NCBI GenBank assembly: GCA_963772455.1
Contig: CAVYXJ010000007.1
Coordinates: 192,001-256,000 of the forward strand
Direction: 5' to 3'
DNA length: 64,000 nt
Origin: Candidatus Bathyarchaeota archaeon
GTDB taxonomy: Archaea; Thermoproteota; Bathyarchaeia; Bathyarchaeales; Bathycorpusculaceae
Position numbers and translations under genes: made by a program. The notes beneath the pieces are model-generated. The model ran no database searches, had not been told where the DNA came from, and saw only the letters and a program-made list of their open reading frames with translations. Numbering within the stretch: position 1 is the first letter of the stretch; every line of letters begins with the position of its first letter. Shown piece after piece: positions 12,037 through 36,952 of this stretch.

Positions 12037-12912
12037 TTATTTCTCTGTAGACTCTAACATTTTGTACATGATGTCATATGAGTCTGCGAAATCGCTGTCA
12101 GCTGCGGATAGCTTCTTCTTTAGCTGTTCCATACGTTCAACGATTGCTTTTTGGTCTTTGTTTTTGATTAAGGCCAGCAGTTCTTGGGCTTTAGCAATGA
12201 ACAAATCCTCGATCTCGCCTAAGTTAGCCAAATTCGTTTGTACGCTTGCGTAGAGGTCTGGGGTTTCCAGCGCTGTTGCTTCAGCTAAGGTGAACAGCAT
12301 TCTATAAGTGGTGCCTGCAACTTTTTTGGTTTCTGGCAGGTTCTTCTGTTCCAAGAGTGTTTCGCATGCTACTAAACCAAGGAAATGCGGCAACCCCAAA
12401 ACGACTGACATTAGTTCGTCGTGCTTTTTTGGAGTCATGACGAATACGTGTGCTTCTTCCTTTTCCAACCAATGCTTGAATTGCTCAGCGAACTCTTGCT
12501 CCTTAGCGTTGGTTGGGGTTAAAACGTATGCTTTGTATTTGACTCCGTTGCTTCCTGGACCAAAAACTGGGTGCGTTCCTAAAACCGTGGCTCCCTTGAT
12601 GTATTGGTGCATAGTTTTGACTGGGGCTTCTTTGATTGAGCAAATATCCATAACAACCTGTCCCTCGTGGAGTAAGGGGCTGATCGCTTTAGCAACTTCT
12701 TCAATGGCGTTTATTGATATACAGAGCAGGATTTGGTCGGCATCTTTGACTGCTTCCTCAAAACTGGTTGTCAAGTCAACTAGTAAGTCTTTTTGCGCCT
12801 CAAGCTTCGCTTTCTTACGGTCAGCTAAAATAACGTCGTAATCTTTGGACATGAAAAATTTTGCGAACCAAACACCCATCTTTCCAGCGCCGATTACGGC
12901 AATCTTCATCAA
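12037..12912 (-). CDS. tyrA: Prephenate/arogenate dehydrogenase
   Basis: GAGKMG Rossmann motif, DICSIK, HPVFGP, HDELMS. Confidence 0.93.
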   Translation of the reverse strand: MMKIAVIGAGKMGVWFAKFFMSKDYDVILADRKKAKLEAQKDLLVDLTTSFEEAVKDADQILLCISINAIEEVAKAISPLLHEGQVVMDICSIKEAPVKTMHQYIKGATVLGTHPVFGPGSNGVKYKAYVLTPTNAKEQEFAEQFKHWLEKEEAHVFVMTPKKHDELMSVVLGLPHFLGLVACETLLEQKNLPETKKVAGTTYRMLFTLAEATALETPDLYASVQTNLANLGEIEDLFIAKAQELLALIKNKDQKAIVERMEQLKKKLSAADSDFADSYDIMYKMLESTEK

Positions 12913-13985
12913 GCTGCCTCACTGATTTTTTCCAACGCGACCTTAATGTCAGCATCTGGAGCAGTCAAGGAGATTCGGAAGTGTTCTCTGTAATCGCCAA
13001 ATGATGTACCTGGAGCAACTGCTACGCCTTTTTCGAGCAGGTCTAGAGTGAATTTTTCAGAGTCTAAGCCGTCAAGTTTGGGGAATATGTAGAAAGGTGC
13101 TTCGGGTTTGGTGAATTTGAAGCCTGCCGCAGAGAGTTTGGTGCTTGCCATATCTGCGCGTTGTTTGTATTTGGCTTTGATGGCGGAAGCGATTTGTTTG
13201 TGGAGTTCTAAGCCTTTGAGTGCAGCGTCTTGGATGAAAACAGGGACATTGTTTATGGTGATTTGGTTTAGTTTGGTTATGTTGTCGATTAAGGGTTTGT
13301 TAGCGATTAAGTAACCGATTCGCCAACCAGTCATTGTGAATGTTTTTGAGAAGCCGTTGCTTAAGATGTGCATGCAGTCTTTGTCGTAATCTAAGATGCT
13401 TTTTGTTTTTGTGAAGGCTATCGTAGCATAGACTTCGTCGGATAATATCGTGATTTTTTTCTTGTTTGCGATTTCTACAATCTTCTCAAGGGTTTCTGCA
13501 TTCATGACTTTGCTTGTGGGGTTGTTGGGGTTGTTGAGTATAATCATGCGTGTATCTTTGTCAATTAATTTTTCCAGATTATCTAAATCGACTTTCCAAT
13601 CGTTTTCAAGCTCAGTTCGCAACAGTTTGGTTTTGGCGCCTAGACTTTTAGCTATTAAATCGTAAGCTGTCCAATAAGGAGTTGGAATAATGACGTTTCC
13701 GCCGTTTCTTAGCATCAAGAACATTGTGGCGAATATGCCCCATTTAGAACCAGGCGTAATAACAACGTTCTCAGCTTTAACTCCATGAACCTGAGCGATT
13801 TTTTGTCTCAGCTTTAACTCGCCATAAGAAGAGGAATACTTGGTTTTACCCGCCTTCATAGATGCGTACGCGGCTTCCACTATTTCAGGCGGGGTAGCTA
13901 AGTCTGGATCTCCAAGGTTTAAGCGGATTATTTTTTTTCCTTCGCTTTCAAGTTTAAGAGCTTTCTCGTTTATCTCGTAGAGCAT
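12909..13985 (-). CDS. Class I/II PLP aminotransferase (probably aromatic)
   Basis: NNPNNPT, SDEVY, SKTFTMTGWRIG; lies between chorismate mutase and tyrA. Confidence 0.92.
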   Translation of the reverse strand: MLYEINEKALKLESEGKKIIRLNLGDPDLATPPEIVEAAYASMKAGKTKYSSSYGELKLRQKIAQVHGVKAENVVITPGSKWGIFATMFLMLRNGGNVIIPTPYWTAYDLIAKSLGAKTKLLRTELENDWKVDLDNLEKLIDKDTRMIILNNPNNPTSKVMNAETLEKIVEIANKKKITILSDEVYATIAFTKTKSILDYDKDCMHILSNGFSKTFTMTGWRIGYLIANKPLIDNITKLNQITINNVPVFIQDAALKGLELHKQIASAIKAKYKQRADMASTKLSAAGFKFTKPEAPFYIFPKLDGLDSEKFTLDLLEKGVAVAPGTSFGDYREHFRISLTAPDADIKVALEKISEAA

Positions 13986-14012
13986 ATCTTTGGACTCTCC
14001 GTTAAGAGCGTT

Positions 14013-14273
14013 TTATTCTTGAACAGCACTGCACATATTAACTATTTCGCGATAAACCGCTTCAACCTGACTTGCATTAAGACCGAGTTTGATACCTTTC
14101 GCACGTATCCTCTTGTAAACCTCGTTCTCCCGTGCAACATCTCGAATTGGTTTGCCCTGCATTTTCTTGGCTAAACCGATTTCCTCACATACCTTTACTC
14201 GTACACACAGTGCCATTAGGATTTGGTCGTCGATTTCATCAATTCTTTGCCTAAGCTTTAGAATTTCAGCCAT
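14013..14273 (-). CDS. Chorismate mutase (AroQ type)
   Basis: LRQRIDEIDDQI...R...IG..K...IRD..RE. Confidence 0.93.
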   Translation of the reverse strand: MAEILKLRQRIDEIDDQILMALCVRVKVCEEIGLAKKMQGKPIRDVARENEVYKRIRAKGIKLGLNASQVEAVYREIVNMCSAVQE

Positions 14274-14275
14274 TG

Positions 14276-15382
14276 TTACTGCCTCTTTAGAATACGCGGT
14301 ATAAACCCTGCTCTAATCATATGGTCAGCTAAAGTTATTGCAACTGCGGCTTCAATTGCGGGTACAGCTTTAGGAACAACGCAAGGATCATGTCTGCCCT
14401 TTATGCTTAAGGCTGCATTTTCCATTTTCTCTAGATTGACTGTTTTCTGTTCTTTTGCGATGGAAGGAGTTGGTTTAATCGCCACTCGAATCATAACGGG
14501 CATGCCGTTAGATAAACCTCCTAAAACGCCTCCAGCATTATCGGTTGAAGTTACAACTTGTCCCTTTTGAATTTGATAAGCGTCATTGTTCTGCGATCCT
14601 TTCACCAACGCAGCTTCAAAACCCATTCCAAACTCGACTCCTTTAACGGCTGGAACCGAAAAAATAGATTTAGCCAAATCTGCATCTAACGAATCAAACA
14701 AAGGCTCACCAACCCCAACGGGTATACCGAGCACAAGACACTCAATTATTCCGCCAAGACTGTCGCCTTCTTTTTTAGCGTTCACTATAGCTTCCTCCAT
14801 TCGCTCTCCACAAATTAAGTCAGGGCACCTTGTTGATGCGGCGTAACGGTTTTTGCGTATTTCGTCGGAAGTGAATTTTTTATCAGTCTTAACCTGCCCA
14901 ATCGCCGAAGTATAAGCCAACACATCAACATCAAAGCGACTGAGCATTTTTTTAGCGACTGTGCCAGCCATAATAATTGCTACGGTAACTCTACCTGAGA
15001 AACGTCCTCCACCACGATAATCGTTCAAGCCACCAAATTTGATTCGTGCTGGGTAATCTGAGTGCCCAGGTCTTGGCAGACCTTTCATCTCTTCGTAATC
15101 GCTTGAGTCTGTTTCCTTGTTTTCAACCAACACGGATATTGGAGCCCCAGTTGTTAATCCGTTAAAAATTCCTGAAAGAACCTTAACAATATCTTTCTCA
15201 ATACGTGCAGAAACAATCTTTAACTCAGCTGGGATCCTGCGGTCAAGTTCTATTTGGAAATCACTTTCAGAAAGAGGCAAACCTGATGGACACCCATCCA
15301 CAACTACGCCAACGACTTTGCCGTGACTCTCGCCAAAAGTGGTAACTGTAAATTCTTTACCGATCGAATTTCCCGCCAACAA
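14276..15382 (-). CDS. aroC: Chorismate synthase
   Basis: FGESHG, PRPGHSD, GGGRFSGR, GRHDPC. Confidence 0.97.
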   Translation of the reverse strand: MLAGNSIGKEFTVTTFGESHGKVVGVVVDGCPSGLPLSESDFQIELDRRIPAELKIVSARIEKDIVKVLSGIFNGLTTGAPISVLVENKETDSSDYEEMKGLPRPGHSDYPARIKFGGLNDYRGGGRFSGRVTVAIIMAGTVAKKMLSRFDVDVLAYTSAIGQVKTDKKFTSDEIRKNRYAASTRCPDLICGERMEEAIVNAKKEGDSLGGIIECLVLGIPVGVGEPLFDSLDADLAKSIFSVPAVKGVEFGMGFEAALVKGSQNNDAYQIQKGQVVTSTDNAGGVLGGLSNGMPVMIRVAIKPTPSIAKEQKTVNLEKMENAALSIKGRHDPCVVPKAVPAIEAAVAITLADHMIRAGFIPRILKRQ

Positions 15383-16655
15383 CCTCAGCTCCTATTTGTC
15401 TTAGATGAGTGAAGAACTGCGGATAAGACTTTCTGACGCAATCAGCGTTTTGGATTGTAGTTTGTCCTTCTGCCCCTAAAGCGGCAACTGCGCAAGCCAT
15501 TGCGATTCGGTGGTCGTTATGGGGATCTATTATAGCGCCGTGTAAAGGTGAACCTCCTTCTATGATTAAGCCATCGTTCTTGATGGTAATTTGTGCACCC
15601 ATCTTTTTTAACTCAAGGTAAAGCGATTCGAGACGGTCAGATTCTTTAAGTTTAAGCCTACTTGCACCAAAAATATGGGATGTACCCTTTGCATAACACA
15701 TCATAACTGCTATAGCTGGAACAAGATCAGGAATGTGCTTTGCATCAACTTCACCTGTTCTAAGTAAACTTCCGGAACCTTCAATCTCAACGTTGTCCGC
15801 GCAAACTTGTCCATTAACGCCCATATGTTTTAGGATACCTATTATCGCCTTGTCTCCTTGAAGGCTATCATAATCAAGGTTATTTATTTGGACTTTAGAC
15901 TGAGTTATAGCTGCTCCTGCAAGAAGAAAAGCGGATGAGGAGAAGTCGCCTGGAACCTTGCTGTCAGCCGAAGTGTAGATTTGGTTTGCTGGAATATGTA
16001 TGTGATTTTCATGTGTAGGCACTTTAACTCCATGATTGGCAAGAACAGCTTCAGTCATTTTAACGTAACCTTCAGACTCCAACGGAGAAGACAGCATTAT
16101 TTCACTGTCCACTTGAGCCTTTGGGCATGCAAACATCAAACCTGAAATAAATTGTGAGCTCACGTTACCCAGAATTGATGTTTCACCTCCAGCAATGCCG
16201 CCACCCTCAACGAAAACCGCGTCTTTATTGCCGACATTACCGATATGGGTTTTAGCACCAAGTTCGGCGAGGCTTGTCAGTAATGGTTCCATGGGTCGCT
16301 TTTCAATTGAACCATTAAAAACTAGAATCGAAGACCCTTTTGCCAGGGCAGCTACTGGAACCATGAAACGCAATGTAGCTCCTGATTCACCACAGTCGAT
16401 TGGCTCTTTTGCAGCTTTAAGTGTATTAGGTCCTTTGATAATCCAGCAGCCCTCTATTTCATTCACTTCTGCACCCAAAGCAGTTACGGCGCGAAGCGTT
16501 GCTTGGGTATCACCGGAGAAAAGAGGAGCAGAAACTTTAGATAACCCACTAGATAATGCAGCGGCAATAACCATCCTCTGGGTAAAAGACTTGGACGACG
16601 GTGCACAAACTTGACCACTTAGCTTCACCGTTTTTTTAACAATTACATCCGCCAT
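15357..16655 (-). CDS. aroA: EPSP synthase
   Basis: SKSFTQR, GESGATLRF, SSQFISG, KESDRL, DHRIAMA, KSYPQF. Confidence 0.97.
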   Translation of the reverse strand: MADVIVKKTVKLSGQVCAPSSKSFTQRMVIAAALSSGLSKVSAPLFSGDTQATLRAVTALGAEVNEIEGCWIIKGPNTLKAAKEPIDCGESGATLRFMVPVAALAKGSSILVFNGSIEKRPMEPLLTSLAELGAKTHIGNVGNKDAVFVEGGGIAGGETSILGNVSSQFISGLMFACPKAQVDSEIMLSSPLESEGYVKMTEAVLANHGVKVPTHENHIHIPANQIYTSADSKVPGDFSSSAFLLAGAAITQSKVQINNLDYDSLQGDKAIIGILKHMGVNGQVCADNVEIEGSGSLLRTGEVDAKHIPDLVPAIAVMMCYAKGTSHIFGASRLKLKESDRLESLYLELKKMGAQITIKNDGLIIEGGSPLHGAIIDPHNDHRIAMACAVAALGAEGQTTIQNADCVRKSYPQFFTHLRQIGAEVVGGKFDR

Positions 16656-16658
16656 TAG

Positions 16659-17528
16659 TTAGAGCACCTTAGCTTTCTCACAATTCAATTTAGCCTGCAA
16701 TATTTCACCGTCATATTTCTGCAAAGCAGCTTTCACTAAATCAACTTTATCCTTTGAAACCACAGCTGTAACCGCTGGTCCTTTGCCACACAGCCCAGCA
16801 GCTATCGCGCCAGCAACTAATGCATCGATAGCGATTGCAGTATTGAGGTTGGAAGCTGAAGAATAAATTAATCCATTAAGTGTTAATGCCTCCCAGATTT
16901 TGCCATCTAAAACTTTCTCGAAGGCGATTTCCACGAGAGGTTTGAGCGTTTTGAGCCTATTTACGTTGCAGTCGATTGTGTAAGCTTTTTGGGGGGGCAC
17001 ATGGAAAAGCACATCTAAATCTTCAGGCAATGGATATTGTTTGATTATTTCTTGTTTCAAGTTGTCAGTGATTTGTAATCCGCCAAAGTAAGAGGCGCAA
17101 GCATCGTCAAATGCGCCTGTTACGGTAACTTTCGCGTCAAAAGCTGCTTCAACACCTAACTTTATGATGTCTATATCATCAAGAGTTTTTCCCAGTGCCT
17201 TTGTGGTTGCTAGAGCTGTTGCGTTTGCAGCTACACTACTGCTCTTAAGCCCTCGTGCAATGGGAATGTTGGATATGGTTTTTATTTTTACTCCAAAACT
17301 CTTCTCTAAATTAAATCTTCTTAGGACTCTTGTAGCAGTTTTTTCTATAAGAAGCGTACTTTCTTTTGGGTCAGAAACTATCTCAGCTCTAATAACGCCT
17401 GCTTCATCGGTTATGTTAACTTCAGCTCTAGTCCACAAGTCAATCCCAAACGCAGCACCCTTTCCCAACGCAATTGCGTTAACGATTGTTGCTGCCCCAT
17501 GAGCAATAGCTACTGCTTTACCTGTCAA
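16659..17528 (-). CDS. aroK: Archaeal GHMP-type shikimate kinase
   Basis: GAATIVNAIA, PIARGLKSSS, TGAFDDACAS. Confidence 0.95.
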   Translation of the reverse strand: MTGKAVAIAHGAATIVNAIALGKGAAFGIDLWTRAEVNITDEAGVIRAEIVSDPKESTLLIEKTATRVLRRFNLEKSFGVKIKTISNIPIARGLKSSSVAANATALATTKALGKTLDDIDIIKLGVEAAFDAKVTVTGAFDDACASYFGGLQITDNLKQEIIKQYPLPEDLDVLFHVPPQKAYTIDCNVNRLKTLKPLVEIAFEKVLDGKIWEALTLNGLIYSSASNLNTAIAIDALVAGAIAAGLCGKGPAVTAVVSKDKVDLVKAALQKYDGEILQAKLNCEKAKVL

Positions 17529-17530
17529 TT

Positions 17531-18397
17531 TTACACCTTCGTTAAATGATTTAGCGCTGCCTGCCTCATAACATCAACAGGTGCAGACTTACCCGTCCAG
17601 ATTTCAAAAGAAGCCGCACCTTGATAGATTAACATCTCAACACCACTAACCACTTTCGCACCAGCCGCCTTCGCGTCTTTAGCCAGTCTAGTTTCAATTG
17701 GGTTATAGACTATGTCCATGACAGCTAAATTTGGTCGTAAAAGTTTAGGCGCTACTGGGGTTTCCTCACCTTTCGGTTTCATCCCCACTGATGTAGCATT
17801 GATTAAAACGTCTGAGTCTTGAAGATTTTGTTGTATTTCTTTCGGCGAAAGTGATCCTGAAACAATTTTCTTATTTGCGATCTTCTCAAGAAGTTTGGCT
17901 AAGTCTTGAGCTGGTTTTAGGGAGCGATTCAACACTGCCAACTCGTCAGCTTCTTTAGCCATTGTGTATGCTATGGCTCTAGCTGCGCCTCCTGCACCTA
18001 ACAATAGAACCTTTCGCCCCTTCAATTCAACCCCGTTTTCTCGGAGAGCTTTCAATGCACCAACTCCATCGGTGTTGAAACCAAAGAGTTTGTTATCTCT
18101 GTTTAAGATAGTATTAACTGAATTGATAATTTGAGCAGATAAGTCGGTTCTATCAAGAAACTTTAAAATTGGAGTTTTATGAGGCATTGTTACATTTAAG
18201 CCGCGTATGTTTAGAGCTCGCATGCCGTTGACTGCATTTTCAATTTCTGCAGGCTTCACCTTGAAAGCTAAAAACACATAGTCGAGGTTTAGGGCATTGA
18301 ATGCTGCGTTGTGCATGATTGGGCTTAATGTGTGTTCTATAGGATCCCCGATAACCCCGCAAACCCTTGTTTTTCCAGATATACCCATATCATCCAT
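17531..18397 (-). CDS. aroE: Shikimate dehydrogenase
   Basis: SPIMHN, NVTMPHK, NTDGVG, GAGGAAR, NATSVG. Confidence 0.96.
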   Translation of the reverse strand: MDDMGISGKTRVCGVIGDPIEHTLSPIMHNAAFNALNLDYVFLAFKVKPAEIENAVNGMRALNIRGLNVTMPHKTPILKFLDRTDLSAQIINSVNTILNRDNKLFGFNTDGVGALKALRENGVELKGRKVLLLGAGGAARAIAYTMAKEADELAVLNRSLKPAQDLAKLLEKIANKKIVSGSLSPKEIQQNLQDSDVLINATSVGMKPKGEETPVAPKLLRPNLAVMDIVYNPIETRLAKDAKAAGAKVVSGVEMLIYQGAASFEIWTGKSAPVDVMRQAALNHLTKV

Positions 18398-19073
18398 TCC
18401 CCAACAGAGAATAAGCAGTCTTCATTTCATTTATGCCCATTTGTCCCGCAGCAGTTTCACTGCCATCGCCGAGTGAGGCAAAAGTGAAAAAAGCCCCAAA
18501 CAAAGGCGATAGAACTCTCGAAACTCTGCCATGTTCACCCATACAGAAACAAACGATCTTAGCCTTGCTGGAAGAAAGCGAAATAAAGCTCAAAACAGGC
18601 AAGTTGTCCGCTATCTGTAAAGCAGTTGTCACAATCTTACAGACGAAAGCGCCGCTGGCAAGTTCTTCATCTAGAATCGCCGTCATCGCTAAAACGTTGA
18701 GTGCACCGTCGAACTTGTGGTAGGAAACAATGGGTTTCACCCCTAACATTTTAATCTGACTGATAATTTCTTTGTGTTTTGGACATGATAAATCTATATC
18801 AACATATTCAAAGCCGCTTTTAGCCGCATTCAAAAGAGTTTGTTGACGTTCAGATTCTATTCCAGAAAAAAATCCTTTTTCGCTTAGGAGTCTGTTTGTG
18901 GCAATTAAGGGAACTTTCGTGCTTGCTGACAATTCGGACAAATTGCGGGATGTCTCAAGGCAGTCAAGCCTAACTTCTATAATGTCAGCTTTGGTTAACT
19001 CTGCTTTTTCAATGAGGTTTAAAGCTTCACTGTTGTTTTTTGGGAGAATCGAGACACAGATCCTCGGGGTCAC
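18390..19073 (-). CDS. aroD: Type I 3-dehydroquinate dehydratase
   Basis: EVRLD, SYH, CKIVT, MGEHGRVSR, AAGQ. Confidence 0.92.
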   Translation of the reverse strand: MTPRICVSILPKNNSEALNLIEKAELTKADIIEVRLDCLETSRNLSELSASTKVPLIATNRLLSEKGFFSGIESERQQTLLNAAKSGFEYVDIDLSCPKHKEIISQIKMLGVKPIVSYHKFDGALNVLAMTAILDEELASGAFVCKIVTTALQIADNLPVLSFISLSSSKAKIVCFCMGEHGRVSRVLSPLFGAFFTFASLGDGSETAAGQMGINEMKTAYSLLGNG

Positions 19074-20110
19074 TTTTCAATCACCGTTTCTTCAGGTACA
19101 GATATGCCAAAGTGCCTTCCTCCCTTCGCAGCTATGTGCACTAATACTTCGTCGTTTGGCTTTAATTCTGTAACTGGTTTTGATGCTTGGGGAGTGACTA
19201 GGCGGATAGTTTCAGCGTTCTGCAAAATGGTTTTAATTTTGGTGTCGTCTGCTTGGGCTTCAATGAGTATTAGGGGGCGAAACTCGATTTTGGATCTTCC
19301 CACGTTTGTCAACCTAACTTTGCCTTCTCGGTTAACAATTAAGACCTCATCTCCTGCCTTGAGCTCAGAGAGGTACCTAGTGCTCTGTGTTGATGTCAAA
19401 GTGTAATGTGAGGCAGGTCCAGCGTTAACCCTGAAAGGTCGAGATTGCACATAGGGATTCTCATTGACTTCAGCTTCAACAAGGAAAAAACCCGCTGATT
19501 GACAACCTACAAGCATGCCTTCTCCTGGAACCATCAAATCAATAGTGTCAACGCAAACTCTCGCGCCCGAACCAATGGGCTTAATTGACAAAATCTTCGC
19601 TGGCTTTATCACCATTTTTTGGACTTGTGAGTTAATGAATTTAATTGTTTTTTCCAGTTCGTTTGGGCTTCCAGTTTTAAGAAGCACACCATCAGTTCCA
19701 AGTTCAAGCGCTTCCAAAACCACCTTCGCATCTTCAGAGGTTATGACTTCAGCGATTAAGGAGCTTTTTCCTCTACCTTTCGCAATCAAGTTTTCAAGCG
19801 GAATCACTCGCCAATCGATGCAATTTATAATCACATAGTCAACGCCGAGATCTCCGGCTTTAGCGGCTTTGTTTTCATCCTCTTTGCCCTGAATAGTAAC
19901 TCTAAGGGCAGTTTTTTTTCCTTCTTTCTTTAATTGAGCAATCTTTTTCTCGTTTAAATCAGTTATGAAAACTATATCGAGTTTGCCGGTCCTATTGCTA
20001 GCTTGGTCCCCTTCAAGGATTACATCCACGTTTTCATGTGAAATGCTAAGCAAACTCTCTTTTTCTTGAACTGAAGCTTTTGGATCAATTTCTATCCAGA
20101 GTTCCTTCAA
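19070..20110 (-). CDS. 3-dehydroquinate synthase II (archaeal AroB')
   Basis: WRVIPLENLIA, RVCVDT, RPFRVNAG, LQNAETIRL, RHFG. Confidence 0.95.
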   Translation of the reverse strand: MKELWIEIDPKASVQEKESLLSISHENVDVILEGDQASNRTGKLDIVFITDLNEKKIAQLKKEGKKTALRVTIQGKEDENKAAKAGDLGVDYVIINCIDWRVIPLENLIAKGRGKSSLIAEVITSEDAKVVLEALELGTDGVLLKTGSPNELEKTIKFINSQVQKMVIKPAKILSIKPIGSGARVCVDTIDLMVPGEGMLVGCQSAGFFLVEAEVNENPYVQSRPFRVNAGPASHYTLTSTQSTRYLSELKAGDEVLIVNREGKVRLTNVGRSKIEFRPLILIEAQADDTKIKTILQNAETIRLVTPQASKPVTELKPNDEVLVHIAAKGGRHFGISVPEETVIEK

Positions 20111-20898
20111 CGCTTTTCACCCAGGAGTCTAAGCGCTTGCTCCACCGATAAGTTTTCGTGAACTATAGCTGCGAGCGCTTTGACGATTTGAGTTGGGTTT
20201 TCGCATTGAAACACATTTCGTCCTATCGAAAGTCCAGCGGCTCCAGCTTTAAGTGAATCATATGTCGTTTGGAGGATTTCTTGGTTAGTTTTGCATTTTG
20301 GTCCACCAGCGATGACCACTGGAACAGGGCAGCTTTCAACTACAGTTTTGAAGGTTTCAATGTCGCCTGTATAGTTGGTTTTGATAATGTCTGCGCCAAG
20401 TTCTGCACCGATTCTTGCTGCGTGCGCCACCACTTCGGGTGAGTGTTCGTTTTGGATTTTTGGTCCACGCGGATACATCATTGCAAGCAATGGCAGACCG
20501 AAGAGATCACATTCTTCGGAGACTTTACCGAGATTTTGAAGCATTTTGTCTTCGTCTTGGGCTCCAACGTTAACGTGTACAGAGACTGCGTCTGCGCCGA
20601 TGCGTATTGCTTCTTGAACGGAACAGACTTGTACTTTGGCGTTTAAGTTAGGACTAAGATTTGACATGCCTGACAACATAACAATTAGTCCTGCTTGTCC
20701 CGTATCGATGCGTTTAGCTATGCCTTTGTGGACGAGGATAGCGTCTGCATTTCCTTTCACTAACTTTGTGGTTATTTCCTGCATGTTGGTTATGCCTTGG
20801 ATAGGTCCGATTGTAACACCATGATCCATGGGCACGATTACTGTGCGGTTGTCTTGCTGCATGATTCTTCTTAATCTACGGGTTTTTCCATTATTCAT
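20107..20898 (-). CDS. 2-amino-3,7-dideoxy-D-threo-hept-6-ulosonate (ADH) synthase (AroA')
   Basis: Class I aldolase: PMDHG, AMMYPRG, ELGADIIKT, AGGPK, GRNVFQ; adjacent to DHQ synthase II. Confidence 0.93.
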   Translation of the reverse strand: MNNGKTRRLRRIMQQDNRTVIVPMDHGVTIGPIQGITNMQEITTKLVKGNADAILVHKGIAKRIDTGQAGLIVMLSGMSNLSPNLNAKVQVCSVQEAIRIGADAVSVHVNVGAQDEDKMLQNLGKVSEECDLFGLPLLAMMYPRGPKIQNEHSPEVVAHAARIGAELGADIIKTNYTGDIETFKTVVESCPVPVVIAGGPKCKTNQEILQTTYDSLKAGAAGLSIGRNVFQCENPTQIVKALAAIVHENLSVEQALRLLGEKR

Positions 20899-20910
20899 CG
20901 TTCTTCCACC

Positions 20911-22146
20911 TTAACGTGTTTTAAGTGAGTTTTTAATTAGTTTTAATGCTTTTTCTCTCTCATTCCAATCCACAAACAGCAGAATACTTGAGGTGATGGT
21001 TAGTATTCCTGAGATGTTTATTCCGTTGACTCGCAGATCTTCGCTTATTCTGCCAATTATACCATGGGTTTCTTCCAATCCCACCCCACTGGTTTGTATA
21101 AACACCAAATCTTTTTTGACTGCCATAGCAATAGTTTCTTTGTTGCTTGTAGTTATTTTGTGAATTTGATTGAAAAGGACTTCGATATTTTTTTCTTGCG
21201 GGACATAGAGAATAATGGAATTCGTATTCATTGACATGCCTAAAAGCATCGAGTTTTCCTTTACTTTCTCAACCATTTCAGTAATGACTTGGGGGTTTGC
21301 GGAGATACCTTTTCCAATCACAGTTATTTCCGAGACTGGCGTTTGATGAGCTATTTCTGCGCCCAATTCTGAAATTAATTCACCCTTTATCAAAGTGCCT
21401 TCACTGCTTAAGTCGCCTTGCGAATTGCTTATGACTTTAACATCGATGTTTTTTGGTTTGTACTTAAGGGCTTTACTGTGGATAAACTTGGCTCCTGAAT
21501 CCGCTAGACCCACAAGTGTGTTAACGTCGATTTCTTTAAGCCTCTGAGGATTCGTAATGATTTTTGGGTCACCCGACATGATGCCATCAGCATCTGTAAC
21601 TAAAACAACTTGATCCGCACATAACGCTTCAGCTAAAATGAATGCGGTAGTATCGCTTCCACCTCTGCCTAAAGTTGTGACTTTGCCTTCTTTGGTTTTA
21701 CCAAGAAACCCTGCTATGACGGGTATAGTGCCTTGTTCAACTATTGGGAGGATGCATTCTTTGATGTTTTTTTCACATTCTTTAAGAATTGGGTTGGCGT
21801 TTTGAAATGCTGCATCTGTAATTATTGGCCAGTTACAATCGATTGGGTCGAAGTAACAGGAGTTTGCTCCATTGCTTTTTAGGGCAGCTGAAAATATTCG
21901 CACGCTGGTCCGTTCACCCATGGAGAGAATATCATCTAAATCGTGTTTCTCTAATTTCCCGTTCGAAGTATTTTTGGCTGTAGACATGAGAACATCGGTT
22001 GTTTTACCCATAGCGGAAACTACAACAGCGATCTTGATACCTTTCTTGGATTCGTTAACCACAGCAACTACTGCTTTTAGGAGTCGTTCGTGATCGGCAA
22101 GGCTAGAGCCACCGAATTTTACAACAATTCTTTTGTTATCTGCCAT
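20911..22146 (-). CDS. Aspartate kinase with ACT domains, first gene of the aromatic operon
   Basis: VKFGGSS, VVSAMGKTTD, LGRGGSDTTA. Confidence 0.93.
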   Translation of the reverse strand: MADNKRIVVKFGGSSLADHERLLKAVVAVVNESKKGIKIAVVVSAMGKTTDVLMSTAKNTSNGKLEKHDLDDILSMGERTSVRIFSAALKSNGANSCYFDPIDCNWPIITDAAFQNANPILKECEKNIKECILPIVEQGTIPVIAGFLGKTKEGKVTTLGRGGSDTTAFILAEALCADQVVLVTDADGIMSGDPKIITNPQRLKEIDVNTLVGLADSGAKFIHSKALKYKPKNIDVKVISNSQGDLSSEGTLIKGELISELGAEIAHQTPVSEITVIGKGISANPQVITEMVEKVKENSMLLGMSMNTNSIILYVPQEKNIEVLFNQIHKITTSNKETIAMAVKKDLVFIQTSGVGLEETHGIIGRISEDLRVNGINISGILTITSSILLFVDWNEREKALKLIKNSLKTR

Positions 22147-22164
22147 CTAGTACACCCGTATTTC

Positions 22165-22200
22165 GCCCAGAACCGCTCAAAAAAGTTTTCAGTTCTGGGC
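22165..22200 (-). terminator. Leader hairpin with U6 tract in the loop (candidate attenuator)
   Basis: GCCCAGAACUG / CGGUUCUGGGC stem (11 bp, one G-U), loop AAAACUUUUUUGAG; starts at the base after the leader stop codon. Confidence 0.6.
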
Positions 22201-22287
22201 CTAAGGAAAATGGTAATAATAAAAATAGTAGTCGAAGCTAAGGAACGGTGATAAATTAGCGCCGTTTTTACTTTTGAAATGTGACAT
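22201..22287 (-). CDS. Phe/Tyr-rich leader peptide (28 aa) of the aromatic amino-acid operon
   Basis: MSHFKSKNGANLSPFLSFDYYFYYYHFP; 5 Phe and 5 Tyr, including six consecutive codons YYFYYY; lies between the promoter and the first gene. Confidence 0.8.
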   Translation of the reverse strand: MSHFKSKNGANLSPFLSFDYYFYYYHFP

Positions 22288-22324
22288 TTGCTTCGAACCT
22301 GTTCAATCAGTCACATCCCAAAAA

Positions 22325-22337
22325 ATATAAGCGTTTC
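22325..22337 (-). promoter_or_regulatory. BRE/TATA promoter of the aromatic operon
   Basis: GAAACGC-TTATAT on the minus strand, about 40 nt upstream of the leader ATG. Confidence 0.65.
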
Positions 22338-22367
22338 GGATTCAGGCTATTGTTTAATTGTTCAATA

Positions 22368-23078
22368 CTACTCTGGCGCCTCTACTTTGATGATCTGCGG
22401 AATTTTCCCAGCAGTCCCAACTTGCCCCTTATATAATATAAGCACTCCTTCAACACCTTCAATCGACAAACCTCTTTTGATGCCCGCATTAATCCCAACC
22501 TGTCCATCATCGCCTTTCACTACATTACAAACGGCTGTAGCGGCTGCATCTGACAAAGCAGCATTTTTGCAGAAAACTATTGCTGCTTCGGCATCCCCAA
22601 AACTAAAAGCGTGACTGAATCGTCCTGAACTAGTGGCAATCCCAATTGGAAATTCAGTTAGCCTAAACCCGAAGCGTCTTGAGAGAGGTTCCTCTCCTGC
22701 CGCAACTGCTACATTAATTGGCTGGTTTGAGAATGCTGAAATTTCGCCGCCATTCTCCACAACCGCCACTTCGCAACCCACCCGTTTCATATCCTCAACG
22801 GCTAAATCTGCTAAAGCTCCTGCAACGGCCGCCATTGGTCCAACATTTGCTGTTTGGGCTGCTATCGCCATTAAATTTGCTACAAGAGGCTTTTCTGGCA
22901 AAGCAATTGGCTCAAAGGTATAAAGAAACTTTGGATTAGCCCTAACATAAAGCTCCAATTCTTGACGGTTCCGCTTGATGGATGCTATAGCCGAGTCGAT
23001 ACCTTGTTGTCTATCAGAAAGAATTGTGCATTGAGTCTCTTTTAGGGAAAAACTTTCTTTAAAAAGTTGACTTGTCAC
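22368..23078 (-). CDS. UPF0280 / ApbE-like protein
   Basis: VGPMAAVAGA, ENGGEI, ATSSG, SFGDA, DAAATA; clustered with the homocysteine genes. Confidence 0.9.
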   Translation of the reverse strand: MTSQLFKESFSLKETQCTILSDRQQGIDSAIASIKRNRQELELYVRANPKFLYTFEPIALPEKPLVANLMAIAAQTANVGPMAAVAGALADLAVEDMKRVGCEVAVVENGGEISAFSNQPINVAVAAGEEPLSRRFGFRLTEFPIGIATSSGRFSHAFSFGDAEAAIVFCKNAALSDAAATAVCNVVKGDDGQVGINAGIKRGLSIEGVEGVLILYKGQVGTAGKIPQIIKVEAPE

Positions 23079-23510
23079 CGTTTCTTTTCCCTATTAACGG
23101 AGGTACCATTGTTGTTTGGTTTAATCGATTTTATGGCGCGAGCGGGGCATGCATCAACACAAACACTACAGGTACTACCAACACATTTCTCTTTATCAAA
23201 CTGAACAGTTGAATCTTGGGCTAATGTTATTGCTTCCACTGGGCAAAGTGCAATGCAGCTGCCACAACTAAAGCATTTGTCCGAGTCAACTTCAATTAAT
23301 TTGGGAACGGTTACTGAGATACCTCTATTGCGGAAAGCATTAACAACTTTTTCGAGTATGTCGTCAGGGACTTCAGACTAGGATTTCTCCACCTTTTGAA
23401 TTTATATGTGCGGACAAAATTGCCATTGGCACTTTGTATTCAATAATTATTTGGGATGCTATGGGCTCTGATACTTGGTCTTCATTGAATCTTATTAGAA
23501 TTCTTCCCAT
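23075..23510 (-). CDS. NIL-domain / 2x[4Fe-4S] ferredoxin (one frameshift near 23376; not in the ORF track)
   Basis: Manual translation MGRILIRFNEDQVSEPI...; CFSCGSCIALCP and CVGSTCSVCVDACP. Confidence 0.85.
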
Positions 23511-23514
23511 TTAA

Positions 23515-25017
23515 TTACCGTCCTAACAATCTGGAAACGTCCTCTGAAGTAATTATACCCAAAACTTTTCGTTCAATATCAATCACGGGCAAAGCAGAGA
23601 TGTTGTTTTGAGCCATTCGTTTAGAAGCAATTTCGAGTGGTTCATCGGGTTTTGCAGTTACTACATTGTGGGATTCTATGTCTGCCAACGATTTTTTGCT
23701 TTCAGCCATGGCGCGAGTGATGTCCCATGAAGTCACTATTCCTTTTAGTTTGCCAGTTTCATCCACAACCACGATGTGGTTGACTGATTTGGTGACTATG
23801 CGTTTTGCAATGGCTTGTATTTCCTCAGCCTCAGTGCATGTTACAGCAGGATGCATTACGTTATAAACGAATGGGATTTCTTCGGTCTGCCGCATTGGTT
23901 TGAAGATTGTGTTAGTTGGCAACCTCTCTACAGGTGAAGTCAAAAGGAATTTGCCCTCATCAATCCATGATTTGAGGGTTTGGGAAACTTTCTTCGCCAT
24001 CTTTAGGCTTGAGAGCGAACTGACTCGGATTTTTTTTCCGTTGACTGTTATGGAGCCAGATTTGAGTTCTTTGTAGCTGACTTGCCCGAACTTGGGGCGG
24101 TCACGTCGTGGGACACTGTAATCCACTATGTCAGTTAGAATGTCTTTATCTTGAATCGCCGTTTTCTTCGCTAAACCCTCATTTAATATAGGGATCGGAA
24201 CACCTAAACCAACATATAGGGATGTCCCATATCCCGTGAAGGCCGCGCCTTGAAGAAATTCTGGCGACATTTTTTTTGCATCACCCTTTACCATGAGTGT
24301 TCCATTTAGGTTCTTGGGGCTATGCTGCGTTCCCTCCCCGATAATGTATCCTTGAGCTCCCCCAAGAAATATGCGGGTTCCCATTCCCATGGTCTCGTAG
24401 TCTGGATCGTTCATGAGGGGGTTAAGTTCTCCAGCGCCCGAGAATGTTGCATTACGGAAACGGGGCAATAGTTTGCTCATATATGTGTAGATTATTTCGT
24501 CGCTGCTATTGACGGCGCAGTTGTATCGTTGGTAGCAATTGCGGAAATTTAGCAGGTAAAATTGGTTTAAATCATCTTTAGTTAAAGTTGTTTTAACTGA
24601 AGTTCTGGGGTAACAATCTGTGCCATATGCTGTGGCTCTAAGTTCTACTTCATTTCCAGCCACTAAGTCTTGAATAACATGTCCTCCGCCATACTCAAAG
24701 GGCAACTTCTCAGACATGTTCGTGGCACCAATAAACAGGTCTACTGCAGCCCCCGGATGGCATACTTCTACGTTGTTAATCCACGCCTTTTCAATCTTAA
24801 TCGGCGGATCTGAGTGCCCAAGGTTTACAACTGCACCAGATGAACACATAGCCCCAAAAGTTCCTGTGGTAACTACATCTACTTCTTTGAAGGCAACTTC
24901 AACACCGCTGCTCTCAACTAGCTTCTTCATTTCCTCTGCAGTCAAAACTTGAGCGTCGCCCTTGCAGATTTTCTGGTTAATCTCATCTATTGTCCGAGTC
25001 TTAGCTTGGTTAGACAA
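23515..25017 (-). CDS. Homocysteine biosynthesis protein (DUF39 plus CBS pair; aspartate-semialdehyde sulfurtransferase type)
   Basis: DVVTTGTFGAMCSSG, YGGGHVI, YGTDCYPR, RNCYQRY; C-terminal CBS domains. Confidence 0.92.
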   Translation of the reverse strand: MSNQAKTRTIDEINQKICKGDAQVLTAEEMKKLVESSGVEVAFKEVDVVTTGTFGAMCSSGAVVNLGHSDPPIKIEKAWINNVEVCHPGAAVDLFIGATNMSEKLPFEYGGGHVIQDLVAGNEVELRATAYGTDCYPRTSVKTTLTKDDLNQFYLLNFRNCYQRYNCAVNSSDEIIYTYMSKLLPRFRNATFSGAGELNPLMNDPDYETMGMGTRIFLGGAQGYIIGEGTQHSPKNLNGTLMVKGDAKKMSPEFLQGAAFTGYGTSLYVGLGVPIPILNEGLAKKTAIQDKDILTDIVDYSVPRRDRPKFGQVSYKELKSGSITVNGKKIRVSSLSSLKMAKKVSQTLKSWIDEGKFLLTSPVERLPTNTIFKPMRQTEEIPFVYNVMHPAVTCTEAEEIQAIAKRIVTKSVNHIVVVDETGKLKGIVTSWDITRAMAESKKSLADIESHNVVTAKPDEPLEIASKRMAQNNISALPVIDIERKVLGIITSEDVSRLLGR

Positions 25018-35533: not shown

Positions 35534-36952
35534 TTGAGTAAAATGAAGATTGTGATGAAGTTCGGTGGAACAAGTGTAGGCACAGGCAAAAACATACGCC
35601 ACGTAGCTGATTCAGTAATTCAATATGCTAAGAAAGATTACAAAGTAGCTGTTGTTGTTTCAGCATTAGCAGGCGTTACTAATAGTTTGCTTGAAGTTGC
35701 TTGCCAAGCTAAGAAAAGTGATGAAAAACAGATCGATTCTTTTACAAAAGAACTGCTAAAGAAGCATGTAGAAGCAATCTCAGCTGCTATTTCAAACAAA
35801 GAAATCCAAAAAGAAGTTATTCAAATCACAGAAAAAACGATCTCTGAATTGGAAAAAGTTTTAACAGGCATATGCTATGTTGGTGAACTAACACCAAAAT
35901 CTAAAGACTACGTTGCCTCTTTTGGAGAACGGTTATCTGCACCAATTGTATCAGGTGCGATAAGAGACCACAAATTTGAGTCTCAATGCTTCACAGGCAA
36001 AGAAGCAGGGATAGTCACGGATTCTAATTTTGGCGAAGCTAACCCACTTATGAATTACACCACTCACCTTATACGTGAAAGAATAGGGCCTATGTTTGAA
36101 AAAGGTACAATTCCAGTGGTTACAGGGTTTATTGCTGCCAATCAAGATGGCATAATGACAACAGTCGGTAGAGGTGGCTCAGACTACACTGCAACAATAC
36201 TTGGCGTAGCACTTCAGGTAGACGAGGTTTGGATCTGGACCGATGTTGATGGAATAATGACTACTGACCCCAAAATCGTTCCATCGGCAAGGATGCTACC
36301 ACAGCTGAGTTATCAGGAAGCAGCTGAAATGGCGATTTTCGGCGCCAAAGCCATGCACCCACGAGCATTGGGGCCTGTCATCAAAGAAAATATTCCAGTC
36401 CGGATTCGAAACACGGCACACCCCGAAAATATGGGGACACTTATAACTAAAGAATCAGCCACAAACGAAACCAAACCCGTGAAAGCTGTAGCCATGATCA
36501 AAGACGTTGCCATGCTCAACGTAAACGGAGCGGCAATGGTAGGTGCACCAGGCAGCTACGCCAAAGTCTTCGACGTACTAGGCAAAAACGGCATCAACGT
36601 AATGATGATATCTACTGCCGTTTCCGAAGCTAACATCTCAATTATTATCAAAAGGGCACTTCTAGGCCGAGCTATAAGCAACCTGGAAATCGCACTTCTA
36701 GAGCGGGGAGGAGTAGTGAGTGAAGTTACCGCAGAAGACGATGTCGCAGTCATCGCGGTCATGGGCGCAAACATGAAGGGCACATTGGGTGTTGCATCAC
36801 ACATTTTCAATATAGTAGCCAAAGCAGGCATAAACATCCGCATGATCGCACAAGGCAGCTCCGAACTCAACATTTCCTTTGTTGTAAAAGAGAAAGACGG
36901 GGTCGACGTAGTCCGAGCAATTCACAACGAATTCAACCTTGATAAAGCTTAA
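35534..36952 (+). CDS. lysC: Aspartate kinase with two ACT domains
   Basis: MKFGGTSVG, SFGERLS, GRGGSDYTA, TDVDG, QGSSE. Confidence 0.95.
   Translation: MSKMKIVMKFGGTSVGTGKNIRHVADSVIQYAKKDYKVAVVVSALAGVTNSLLEVACQAKKSDEKQIDSFTKELLKKHVEAISAAISNKEIQKEVIQITEKTISELEKVLTGICYVGELTPKSKDYVASFGERLSAPIVSGAIRDHKFESQCFTGKEAGIVTDSNFGEANPLMNYTTHLIRERIGPMFEKGTIPVVTGFIAANQDGIMTTVGRGGSDYTATILGVALQVDEVWIWTDVDGIMTTDPKIVPSARMLPQLSYQEAAEMAIFGAKAMHPRALGPVIKENIPVRIRNTAHPENMGTLITKESATNETKPVKAVAMIKDVAMLNVNGAAMVGAPGSYAKVFDVLGKNGINVMMISTAVSEANISIIIKRALLGRAISNLEIALLERGGVVSEVTAEDDVAVIAVMGANMKGTLGVASHIFNIVAKAGINIRMIAQGSSELNISFVVKEKDGVDVVRAIHNEFNLDKA

Follow-up and report, generated by a model that had tools for sequence, protein, structure and literature searches.

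A stable RNA hairpin, here called P2, adjoins the stop codon of a short Tyr/Phe-rich leader ORF upstream of an aromatic amino acid operon in a Bathyarchaeia genome (Table 1; positions are those of the window, the whole 64,000-nt stretch of DNA that was analysed). The hairpin is real and beyond chance, and on sequence comparison P2 and the U-run in its loop have been conserved under selection, next to a translated-looking leader. From the Tyr/Phe-rich leader, the hairpin at its stop codon, the U-run fixed in the loop, and a second helix, P1, all judged by comparison, we conclude that the locus is probably an attenuator that depends on translation of the leader, with P2 as the central element. 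That P2 is itself the element read by the ribosome, in a leader-peptide attenuator before the Bathyarchaeia aromatic amino acid operon, we propose tentatively. A specific mechanism, in which the hairpin would shield the transcript from the termination factor FttA, is likewise a tentative model, as is its direction.

The operon was delimited by Pfam matches and ORF layout and comprises, in order, genes for an aspartokinase-like protein, DeoC-type aldolase, DHQ synthase II, DHQase I, shikimate DH, GHMP kinase, EPSP synthase, chorismate synthase, aminotransferase, and prephenate DH. Their common strand and short gaps suggest that the ten genes form one transcript; there is a single longer gap of 290 nt (13985-14276). 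The leader stop codon is located 54 nt upstream of the first operon gene (start 22146), and nine of the last 14 leader residues are Phe or Tyr. In a genus-group set of 81 distinct sequences, drawn from the genus and its nearest kin, the leader frame and aromatic tail were kept and indels came in units of 3 nt, across 56 different tails; the N-terminal half of the leader was variable. A genome-wide scan for small ORFs rich in any one residue yielded 99 candidates, with the leader of the aromatic operon ranked first and the only convincing one. Four others were inspected as possible leaders of the same design, and these were rejected as they sit before unrelated genes. Upstream of the leader, the BRE/TATA-like block was near-invariant in the 81 aligned sequences and the following ~20 columns varied.

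Table 1. Features of the operon, leader, and hairpin region, with positions in the window
Feature	Position	Strand	Remarks
Aromatic operon, 10 genes	12037..22146	-	Pfam matches and ORF layout
SD-like GGGUG of aspartokinase-like gene	22153..22157	-	7 nt past hairpin
P2 3' arm CGGUUCUGGGC	22165..22175	-	pairs with GCCCAGAACUG; predicted FttA cut after U22171
P2 loop AAAACUUUUUUGAG	22176..22189	-	14 nt; U6 = 22184-22179
P2 5' arm GCCCAGAACUG	22190..22200	-	first base directly 3' of stop codon
Leader ORF MSHFKSKNGANLSPFLSFDYYFYYYHFP, then stop	22201..22287	-	28 codons, ending SFDYYFYYYHFP-stop; UAG = 22203-22201
P1 3' strand GCUUCGA	22232..22238	-	inside codons AGC-UUC-GAC, directly before Tyr run
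P1 5' strand UCGAAGC	22290..22296	-	between leader SD-like AGGU and AUG; RNAalifold columns 48-54 with 109-115
Inferred transcription start, conserved A	22300	-	~27 nt past TATA centre; column before GGUUCGAAGC in alignment A1
Putative archaeal promoter, BRE-like CGAAACGC and TATA-like TTATATTT	22323..22338	-	inferred from sequence and spacing

Reading of the minus strand bore out the preliminary description of an 11-bp stem that starts at the base after the leader UAG and encloses six U: the stem has 11 pairs, one of them U-G, and the U6 tract is inside the loop, with no U-run 3' of the stem. The placement of the tract in the loop, rather than 3' of the stem as in bacterial terminators, also held among relatives, as none of 77 parsed genus-group sequences carried a T-run of at least 4 within 12 nt downstream of the stem. 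The local 46-nt fold had a predicted energy of -19.9 kcal/mol vs. -8.7 +/- 2.2 in shuffles (z = -5.02), and no shuffle out of 200 was as stable. The 181-nt region as a whole was unexceptional (z = -1.31; 22/200 shuffles). The motif GCCCAG..CUGGGC occurs once in the 2.45-Mb genome, which rules out a repeat element. Searches of 21000-23500 against Rfam on both strands, with E values up to 10, returned a single match (sn668, E = 9.2), an unrelated chance hit located elsewhere, and a scan for bacterial-type consensus terminators found none at P2.

Conservation of the stem, which the preliminary description had named as a check, was strong. In the 81 sequences 94.8% of P2 cells were paired, vs. 24-45% when the partner strand was slid, and the covariation score was reached by 0 of 500 shuffles. 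Compensatory changes were found in four distal pairs; one-sided changes were G-U wobbles (17, 11, and 4) and mismatches were nearly absent, a pattern that points to an RNA acting in the sense strand rather than a DNA palindrome. The stem, of 9-11 bp, was strongly conserved, and the six basal pairs GCCCAG/CUGGGC were near-invariant down to ~60% aspartokinase identity (e.g. in L025 and L156). The hairpin begins at the first base past the stop codon in 69/77 parsed sequences. A U-run of at least 5 was present in the loop in 63/77 sequences, when shuffled loops gave a mean of 1.9 and a maximum of 7 in 1000; the run was shorter than 5 U in 14 and consisted of 3 U or fewer in 5 of the 77. Its end falls 22-23 nt past the stop codon in 58/72 sequences.

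The same layout recurs well outside the genus. A stable hairpin abutting the stop codon of an aromatic-rich leader ORF was present in 89 of the 102 Bathyarchaeia genomes examined and spans 22 of 26 family/genus groups scored; as a control, 2 of 1118 genes in the source genome pass the same test. The hairpins of these relatives occupy the same place with unrelated sequences (88 segments, mean fold -19.4 kcal/mol, mean z -3.4). Many relatives have the U-run 3' of the hairpin, or keep the hairpin with no U-run at all, and the U-run is thus not the universal core of the element. These comparisons bear on the possibility that the hairpin is a regulatory-protein site or another RNA or DNA element read by a protein, with the leader ORF incidental or in another role. 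Such a site could account for the near-invariance of the basal pairs, which exceeds what structure alone requires, and for the single occurrence of the element in the genome. We nevertheless find it quite unlikely: other families have wholly different sequences at the same hairpin position, the one-sided G-U changes speak against a DNA palindrome, no Rfam family matches, and the abutting stop codon together with the co-occurring aromatic leader (in the proportions given above) tie the hairpin to translation.

RNAalifold analysis of the 81 sequences returned P1 and P2 alone, and the two do not overlap. P1 is the conserved second helix, in which the Ser-Phe-Asp codons are the partner of the ribosome-binding region of the leader. 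Its cells were paired in 99.1% of cases, and its changes were one-sided G-U only. The Phe codon within P1 was UUC in 81/81 sequences, vs. 160 UUU and 14 UUC at later leader Phe codons, and the Ser codon was AGC in 79/81. This invariance at synonymous sites fits a one-shot sensor used in the first round of translation, and hence transcriptional rather than steady-state translational control. A different set of pairings had been put forward in the preliminary description, namely a switch in which leader segments ACCGUUC, CCGUU, and CACCGU compete for the 3' arm (GAGCGGU), an upstream AACGG, and the SD region, respectively. All three complementarities do exist in the source sequence. Across the 81 sequences they were paired no better than slid controls: 60.0% for ACCGUUC:GAGCGGU vs. 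61.7% after sliding by 3 columns (162/500 shuffles reach the unslid value), 44.0% for AACGG:CCGUU vs. 18.5-46.4%, and 51.0% for CACCGU:SD vs. 17-64%. As the segment also belongs to the N-terminal half of the leader, which is variable, and RNAalifold supports no helices besides P1 and P2, a switch built on these pairings is very improbable. A single-sequence MFE fold joined the Tyr-His codons to the SD; this helix was likewise absent from the RNAalifold result and was discarded.

We then considered whether P2 acts on the SD of the aspartokinase-like gene. A look-up of the 16S 3' end for an anti-SD found none, and the SD consensus was taken instead from word enrichment before genes, where GGUG-type words are enriched in this genome. 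SD accessibility was modelled with ribosome footprint masks to +12, and in a second run with masks to +7 or +12 and arm-swapped controls. In the 81 genus-group sequences the unpaired probability of the SD was 0.35 with the leader free, 0.39 with a stalled ribosome, and 0.35 with the ribosome at the stop codon. The arm-swapped controls dropped more, from 0.38 to 0.25. An SD-accessibility switch in the genus was therefore rejected in both models, as accessibility barely changed from one ribosome state to another, and the footprint-masked folding suggested as a check in the preliminary description went against it. That description had proposed that either the U-tract or the SD is exposed, depending on where the ribosome stands. 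The part on the U-tract, which fits an FttA signature, is the reading we prefer; the part on the SD is unsupported in the genus, where modelled SD exposure was constant.

Relatives gave a different picture. In 41 relatives outside the genus group, modelled accessibility fell from 0.46 with the ribosome three codons before the stop codon to 0.26 at the stop, vs. 0.42 to 0.37 with swapped arms, and the native drop exceeded the swapped one in 29/41 (Wilcoxon p = 0.0016, with sequences that are non-independent). A drop larger than 0.15 was seen in 7/8 relatives with a trailing U-run, which is a trend only, since the classes are blurred by RNAfold pairing the trailing U with the stop codon. These values, together with an SD 2-10 nt past the hairpin in the lineages inspected, are what would be expected if attenuation were translational only, as at erm/cat, with the hairpin state freeing or hiding the SD and no regulated termination. 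We regard this as unlikely. The genus group shows no such drop and its swapped arms drop more, GGGUG offers no complement to the 3' arm GGUUCUGGGC, a steady-state switch needs the leader to be translated repeatedly, which P1 would block, and the selected U-run in the loop would go unexplained.

Termination signals were examined across the genome. T-runs of at least 5 were found within 100 nt of 41% of ordinary gene ends vs. 12% in coding sequence, and bare oligo-T is likely the terminator signal of this genome. Stems enclosing gene-end T-runs numbered 47 of 430 vs. 40 in shuffles, so that hairpin-enclosed T-runs were rejected as a general terminator style; as stems enclose T-runs at about chance frequency, the hairpin around the T-run at P2 is unusual here. 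An FttA orthologue is encoded (TIGR03675, 908 bits vs. a cut-off of 580.2). Both findings are in line with the archaeal oligo-U/FttA termination invoked in the preliminary description. According to the available excerpts of PMC11616081, RNA passes directly from the RNAP exit channel into FttA, the FttA terminator extends from -1 to -36 and carries U at -23 and a U-rich segment at -30 to -36, and FttA products have a terminal U and U-rich RNA at -9 to -14. The excerpts of PMC8716108 describe KH domains that bind U-tracts, and a termination efficacy set by the U-tract and aCPSF1. With U22171 as the 3' end, U6 would fall at -9 to -14 and the RNA would terminate in a U, the optimum for FttA products in the excerpted text (PMC11616081). 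A U is found 5-11 nt past the U-run in 76/76 sequences (8-10 nt in 73), and the stretch from -14 to -9 holds at least 4 U in 76/76 and at least 5 U in 59/76, a match to a signature that is Thermococcus-derived and was fitted to P2 after the fact. The U-run and 3' arm are in this sense consistent with an FttA/aCPSF1 terminator signature and a predicted cut site, and we claim consistency only.

An alternative use of the same U-run would be coupling-dependent read-through, as in pyrBI/pyrE. The run would then be a plain oligo-U pause or terminator, through which a close ribosome pushes the polymerase; stalling on Tyr or Phe codons would lead to termination, and the hairpin would be secondary. The run does resemble the bare T-run terminators found where ordinary genes of the genome end, and with its end 22-23 nt past the stop codon a ribosome decoding the last sense codons would touch a polymerase paused there, an estimate based on bacterial footprint sizes. 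Moreover, a polymerase on the U-run has yet to transcribe the 3' arm, so that only ribosome proximity could act at that point. This scheme, however, has the wrong sign for a biosynthetic operon, as shortage of Tyr or Phe would switch the pathway off; it also leaves the strongly conserved 9-11-bp stem and P1 without a function, and relatives without a U-run keep the hairpin. We consider it improbable.

In the FttA-shield model that we tentatively prefer, scarcity of Tyr or Phe would stall the first ribosome 4-12 codons short of the stop codon, leaving P2 beyond its melting reach. Once the 3' arm had left the RNA polymerase P2 would fold, and the U-run and 3' arm would be locked and could not be threaded into FttA/aCPSF1. 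The polymerase would then reach the aspartokinase start, a new ribosome would couple to it, and the operon would be expressed. When both Tyr and Phe were plentiful, the ribosome would arrive at the stop codon and unwind or occupy the 5' arm, and the single-stranded U6 and 3' arm would present the FttA terminator signature, giving an early end of transcription or of the transcript. P1 would then shut the leader start site, so that the leader would be read about once per transcript. The direction, with an intact hairpin meaning "on", was chosen as the sole setting that gives induction upon Tyr/Phe shortage. A loop of 14-20 nt leaves the U-run mostly unpaired, and shielding would therefore have to rest on the paired 3' arm and on a need of FttA for a threaded single strand. 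The model further predicts that an untranslated leader would also be "on", unlike trp-type attenuators, and it would need a terminating ribosome to remain on the stop codon while the polymerase adds ~30 nt more. The distances used throughout for the helicase activity and footprint of the ribosome are bacterial values.

In bacteria, leader-peptide attenuation is textbook knowledge; it needs coupled transcription and translation, and E. coli pheL-pheA, trpL, and hisL are transcription attenuators of this kind. The Bathyarchaeia leader shares with them a short ORF with a run of cognate (end-product) codons directly upstream of the cognate operon and, as proposed here, RNA helices by the stop codon that would be read by ribosome position. 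The pheL tail ends Phe-Pro-stop, and the Bathyarchaeia tail is similar. The host, on the other hand, is archaeal; there is no conserved terminator/antiterminator set (1:2, 2:3, 3:4) and no conserved, mutually exclusive helix that overlaps P2. The U-run lies in the loop and not after the stem, as an intrinsic terminator would have it, P1 joins the region of the leader start to the codons that precede the Tyr run, and termination would be of the oligo-U/FttA type and not hairpin-dependent and intrinsic.

At tnaC, mgtL, and corL the position of the leader ribosome gates access of Rho near the leader stop codon. Gating of a termination factor by the leader ribosome would be the shared principle, and we use these systems as the closest working analogy for the preferred model. 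In place of Rho and a C-rich rut site, the proposed factor is FttA/aCPSF1, a CPSF73-like nuclease, and the proposed signal is a U-run; codon hunger would be sensed, whereas TnaC senses the free amino acid. In erm/cat leaders a ribosome on the leader remodels a hairpin near the SD of the next gene in response to a drug. The relatives outside the genus resemble these in their predicted SD effect; the genus differs, with its SD outside the hairpin and a modelled accessibility that does not change, and the inducer would be codon hunger. FttA/aCPSF1 terminators, as far as they are covered in the excerpts of PMC11616081 and PMC8716108, have in common with P2 a U-run followed 8-10 nt later by another U, and the factor is encoded here; the known sites lie at the ends of genes, and those excerpts describe for them neither a surrounding hairpin nor gating by a ribosome on a leader.

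A full-text literature search, assessed on titles and the beginnings of abstracts, returned no case of archaeal leader-peptide attenuation. In its widest form our reading is that P2 would belong to an archaeal ribosome-gated FttA attenuator, with the hairpin as an anti-terminator that keeps the U-tract and cut site from a CPSF73-like nuclease until a leader ribosome has cleared the Tyr/Phe codons, that this would be the first amino-acid-sensing leader-peptide attenuation described in Archaea, and that it would be widespread in Bathyarchaeia, with loop-U variants in the genus and, in relatives, variants whose U-run trails the stem beside an anti-SD-like 3' arm. This combined claim is slightly more doubtful than the shield mechanism taken by itself. 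If true, it would mean that Archaea use coupling to control specific genes, and it would offer a handle on amino acid regulation in the uncultured, abundant Bathyarchaeia. The locus would also be a defined natural template for testing the interplay of ribosome, RNA structure, and FttA, which is raised as an open point in the excerpted discussion of PMC11616081. Lineages with loop and trailing U-runs would form a natural series between translational and transcriptional attenuation, and the position of the U-run among relatives provides a ready-made comparative experiment.

Public metatranscriptomes were matched by the region in three runs, each at 0.04-0.07 of the sampled words. At 85% likeness, seven low-depth contig pieces of relatives (90-95% alike) were recovered from three metatranscriptome studies; these pieces could be DNA, and strand, ends, and levels are not readable from contigs. 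Three of the seven bridge the leader, the hairpin, and the gene start.

The leader locus and its aspartokinase-like gene stand at the head of an operon on the minus strand, and the coordinates of the promoter-proximal features, including two conserved helices termed P1 and P2, are compiled in the table. Downstream, and also on the minus strand, lie genes encoding in turn a DeoC-family aldolase, 3-dehydroquinate synthase II, type I dehydroquinase, shikimate dehydrogenase, a GHMP-type kinase, EPSP synthase, chorismate synthase, a class I/II aminotransferase and prephenate dehydrogenase, with a gap of 290 nt ahead of the aminotransferase gene. The set corresponds to the aspartate-semialdehyde-dependent pathway by which archaea make aromatic amino acids, with the tyrosine-branch enzymes at the end.

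Features of the leader locus (window positions; strand as given)
Feature	Position	Strand	Remarks
BRE/TATA-like block	22338-22323	-	conserved; CGAAACGCTTATATTTT
Conserved A	22300	-	about 27 nt past the BRE/TATA-like block; followed by AGGUUCGAAGC
P1 5' strand, UCGAAGC	22296-22290	-	between the SD-like AGGU of the leader and the leader AUG; pairs with P1 3' strand
Leader ORF	22287-22201	-	28 codons; MSHFKSKNGANLSPFLSFDYYFYYYHFP; stop UAG
P1 3' strand, GCUUCGA	22238-22232	-	inside codons AGC-UUC-GAC (Ser-Phe-Asp), ahead of the Tyr run
P2 5' arm, GCCCAGAACUG	22200-22190	-	begins on the base after UAG
P2 loop, AAAACUUUUUUGAG	U6 at 22184-22179	-	14 nt
P2 3' arm, CGGUUCUGGGC	22175-22165	-	pairs with the 5' arm
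SD-like GGGUG	22157-22153	-	seven bases past P2
AA_kinase/ACT protein (aspartokinase-like)	AUG at 22146	-	411 residues

The aspartokinase orthologue was present in all 24 same-genus genomes first sampled, and 81 distinct leader regions from same-genus genomes and public contigs were aligned. The BRE/TATA-like block is near-invariant among these relatives and the next ~20 nt are variable; judged by its sequence, the block is probably a promoter that serves the leader and its operon specifically, regardless of the upstream gene. The upstream neighbour is not the same in relatives; in the window it is a 236-residue ORF (22368-23078, -) lying directly upstream of the probable promoter and giving no hit to Pfam at E <= 0.001. 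The N-terminal half of the leader varies freely with its reading frame preserved, length differences in the tail are multiples of three, and the tails, of which the 81 sequences have 56 distinct ones, are all aromatic-rich. By these features the leader ORF looks translated. It also ranked first of 99 in a genome-wide scan for residue-enriched small ORFs near a downstream gene, and none of the other 98 candidates was convincing.

P2 alone folds at -19.9 kcal/mol, compared with -8.7 +/- 2.2 for its shuffles (z = -5.02; 0/200 as stable). Folding of the whole 181-nt region was unexceptional against shuffles (z = -1.31). The 2.45-Mb genome has a single copy of the P2 motif, and no Rfam family matched at the hairpin region. 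RNAalifold on the alignment returned P1 and P2 and no other helices. Jointly these two were 94.8% paired, against 24-45% with the 3' partner slid, and none of 500 shuffles matched the observed pairing percentage or covariation score. Within P2 the distal pairs are variable and the six basal pairs near-invariant. Two-sided changes occur at columns 159/189, 160/188, 161/187 and 162/186 in 6, 7, 4 and 15 sequences, respectively, the sequences being related and the events not independent. One-sided changes nearly always give wobbles (A-U becomes G-U in 17 and 11 sequences, C-G becomes U-G in 4), and mismatches amount to one or two per pair. This asymmetry is expected of an RNA stem on the minus strand and not of a DNA palindrome. 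Conservation and covariation of the stem across homologues, a check named in the preliminary description, are seen in the alignment.

The same alignment did not sustain the switch that had been proposed around P2. Three alternative pairings, ACCGUUC with GAGCGGU, AACGG with CCGUU, and CACCGU with the SD region of the aspartokinase-like gene, all involve leader sequence that varies among relatives and were 60%, 44% and 51% paired, inside the range of the slid controls; we rejected them as a switch, since their conservation was no better than that of these controls. Nor was the SD predicted to be exposed by ribosome position, as had been suggested: in constrained folding of the 81 sequences its unpaired probability was about equal in all three states modelled, being 0.35 free, 0.39 with the ribosome on the Tyr codons and 0.35 at the stop codon under the tighter mask. 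Arm-swapped P2 controls of the same sequences fell further, to 0.25. No SD switch is predicted for these 81 sequences of the window's genus and its nearest kin.

Aspartokinase-like orthologues were found in 69/151 sampled genomes of the order and 96/251 of the class, and upstream DNA was taken for a labelled subset of the loci. The tally leaves out a paralogue with a dapB-like neighbour (three loci, L028-L030), four loci that were short or scored low (L183-L186) and public contigs without labels (L031-L110). This retained 103 loci, one with too little upstream DNA, so that 102 were scored. A leader was counted when an ORF ended 35-100 nt ahead of the gene with at least five Phe, Tyr or Trp in its last 14 residues, and a hairpin when it reached -12 kcal/mol or better and started within 5 nt of the leader stop. 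An aromatic leader ORF was present at 90 of the 102 loci, 89 of these with a stop-abutting hairpin; a hairpin in family f30 missed the cut-off at -10.1 kcal/mol. The other misses were families f26 and f35 (0/5 each) and f12 and f15 (0/1 each, both with weaker leaders). The same test passed 2 of 1118 long ORFs in the window's genome, one being this locus. The 88 distinct post-stop segments folded at a mean of -19.4 kcal/mol (mean z -3.4; z < -3 in 55; weakest L171, z = +0.7). Hairpin sequences are unrelated from family to family and occupy the same place, which amounts to large-scale covariation. That P2 is a protein-binding hairpin would account for the invariant GCCCAG/CUGGGC, but it leaves both the unrelated hairpins elsewhere and the tie to the stop codon unexplained, and we consider it very unlikely. 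In f26 (L161-L164, L172) and f35 (L168, L174, L181, L188, L189), which lack an aromatic leader, the open frame extends 40-90 codons further upstream (~450-500 residues) with conserved coding-like sequence; either an N-terminal extension or an upstream gene in overlap might account for this.

How P2 lies relative to the stop codon was measured in 77 of the 81 aligned sequences, four with GCUCAG and a U4 run having been missed by the search pattern. P2 begins at the first base past the stop in 69/77 and overlaps it by one base in 4, and its stem has 9-12 contiguous pairs in 76/77. The placement of the U-tract inside the loop rather than 3' of the stem, noted at the outset, was confirmed: 63/77 loops hold a run of at least five U (shuffled loops: mean 1.9, maximum 7 in 1000 trials), and no sequence of the 77 has a run of at least four within 12 nt 3' of the stem. 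Of the 14 loops with fewer than five U, five have three or fewer. Where the run is at least four, it ends 22 or 23 nt past the stop in 58/72 sequences. This fixed spacing would be accounted for by a coupled ribosome pushing the polymerase through the U-run; such an effect has the wrong sign and ignores the P2 stem, and is improbable. T-runs of at least five lie within 100 nt past the stop, mostly within 30 nt, in 41% of 1124 long ORFs of the window's genome, compared with 12% in coding sequence, and stems around gene-end T-runs are not enriched over shuffled flanks (47 vs 40 of 430). Since bare T-runs are common at gene ends, the T6 starting 16 nt past the leader stop resembles an ordinary gene-end signal; the unusual part is the hairpin around it.

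FttA (aCPSF1), the archaeal CPSF73-like termination nuclease, is encoded in the window's genome. According to passages of PMC11616081, RNA leaving the polymerase exit channel enters FttA directly, a terminator covers -1 to -36 and has U at -23 and a U-rich stretch from -30 to -36, and products have a 3'-terminal U and are U-rich from -9 to -14. Passages of PMC8716108 state that the aCPSF1 KH domains bind U-tracts and that factor and tract jointly set termination efficacy. With U22171 as the predicted 3' end, U6 occupies -9 to -14 exactly, a post hoc fit to a signature from a Thermococcus structure. A U lies 5-11 nt past the run in 76/76 related sequences (8-10 nt in 73), giving at least four U in that interval; 59/76 have at least five. 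Two near-identical beta-CASP paralogue matches elsewhere in the genome (G000:C4:16444-17709 and G000:C1:2597-3862) each carry 2 in-frame TGA in a 420-residue open frame.

We infer that the only physiologically sensible direction is that an intact hairpin leaves the operon on. By bacterial footprint and unwinding distances, a ribosome held up for want of Tyr- or Phe-tRNA, 4-12 codons short of the stop, would leave the P2 stem untouched, and one whose A site holds the stop codon would unwind about five pairs and cover most of the 5' arm. The states would then differ in the single-strandedness of the loop and 3' arm. The predicted FttA cut site would fall within the 3' arm; FttA would then be expected to be kept out by a folded hairpin and let in by an open one.

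P1 was 99.1% paired on the alignment; all its variation is one-sided and so gives no compensatory proof. Its Phe codon is UUC in 81/81 sequences, compared with 160 UUU and 14 UUC among later leader Phe codons, and its Ser codon is AGC in 79/81, later ones being AGU or UCU in 14 cases and AGC in 1. Because synonymous codon use is frozen at P1, selection at the RNA level is supported. P1 would shut the leader start after the first ribosome passes, which would make the decision a first-round, transcription-level one. An analogous helix between start region and aromatic codons, of quite different sequence, was seen in single-sequence MFE folds, run with no control, of the distant relatives L167, L173, L175, L170, L149 and L152. 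In f14 (L165, L169, L190) the post-stop hairpin is made of GCUUCGA...UCGAAGC, the two words which in the window's genus make up P1 rather than P2. Chance or rearrangement from a common ancestor might explain the match.

A U-run in the loop is typical of the window's genus and its nearest genera. Several other families carry U4-U6 right after the stem, just ahead of the SD (e.g. L139-L141, L146, L147, L150, L165, L169, L190), and L026, L027, L137 and L148 have no U-run at the hairpin. Within the post-stop 80 nt of L139-L141, L146, L147, L149-L152, L165, L169 and L190, a pyrimidine-rich 3' arm (CUCC/UUCC) precedes U3-U6, with the SD coming after these. In 41 sequences outside the genus group, modelled SD accessibility dropped from 0.46, for a ribosome placed three codons short of the stop, to 0.26 for one at the stop, and only from 0.42 to 0.37 in arm-swapped controls; the native drop was the larger in 29/41 (Wilcoxon p = 0.0016, sequences not independent). 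The trend was strongest where the U-run trails the stem (7/8 drop >0.15, on a rough classification). In these relatives the 3' arm, being rich in pyrimidines, resembles an anti-SD. A switch acting on translation alone fits them but does not fit the window's genus, where it is unlikely. With a trailing U-run and an anti-SD-like arm, a terminating ribosome that opened the stem would mask the SD, and the uncoupled transcript would then fall to FttA.

RNA libraries yielded seven low-depth contig pieces of relatives, 85-95% alike, three of which span leader, hairpin and gene start; these are compatible with read-through transcripts or DNA carry-over. A full-text literature search, judged from titles and the starts of abstracts, found no archaeal leader-peptide attenuator; the nearest archaeal item by that measure concerns promoter-proximal elongation and aCPSF1 (PMC8448881). 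New here are the testing of the hairpin as such, the evidence against the pairings first proposed, helix P1, the series of loop versus trailing U-runs and the FttA geometry.

Elsewhere in the window, an HcyBio (homocysteine-biosynthesis) protein with CBS domains (23515-25017, -) adjoins small Cys-rich ORFs (23075-23510, -), and together they look like an archaeal homocysteine sulfur-incorporation pair. A second, distant amino-acid-kinase relative of the aspartokinase-like query lies at 35822-36865 (+) (G000:C7:227822-228865; 29% identity, E = 2e-33), with a separate short match directly upstream.
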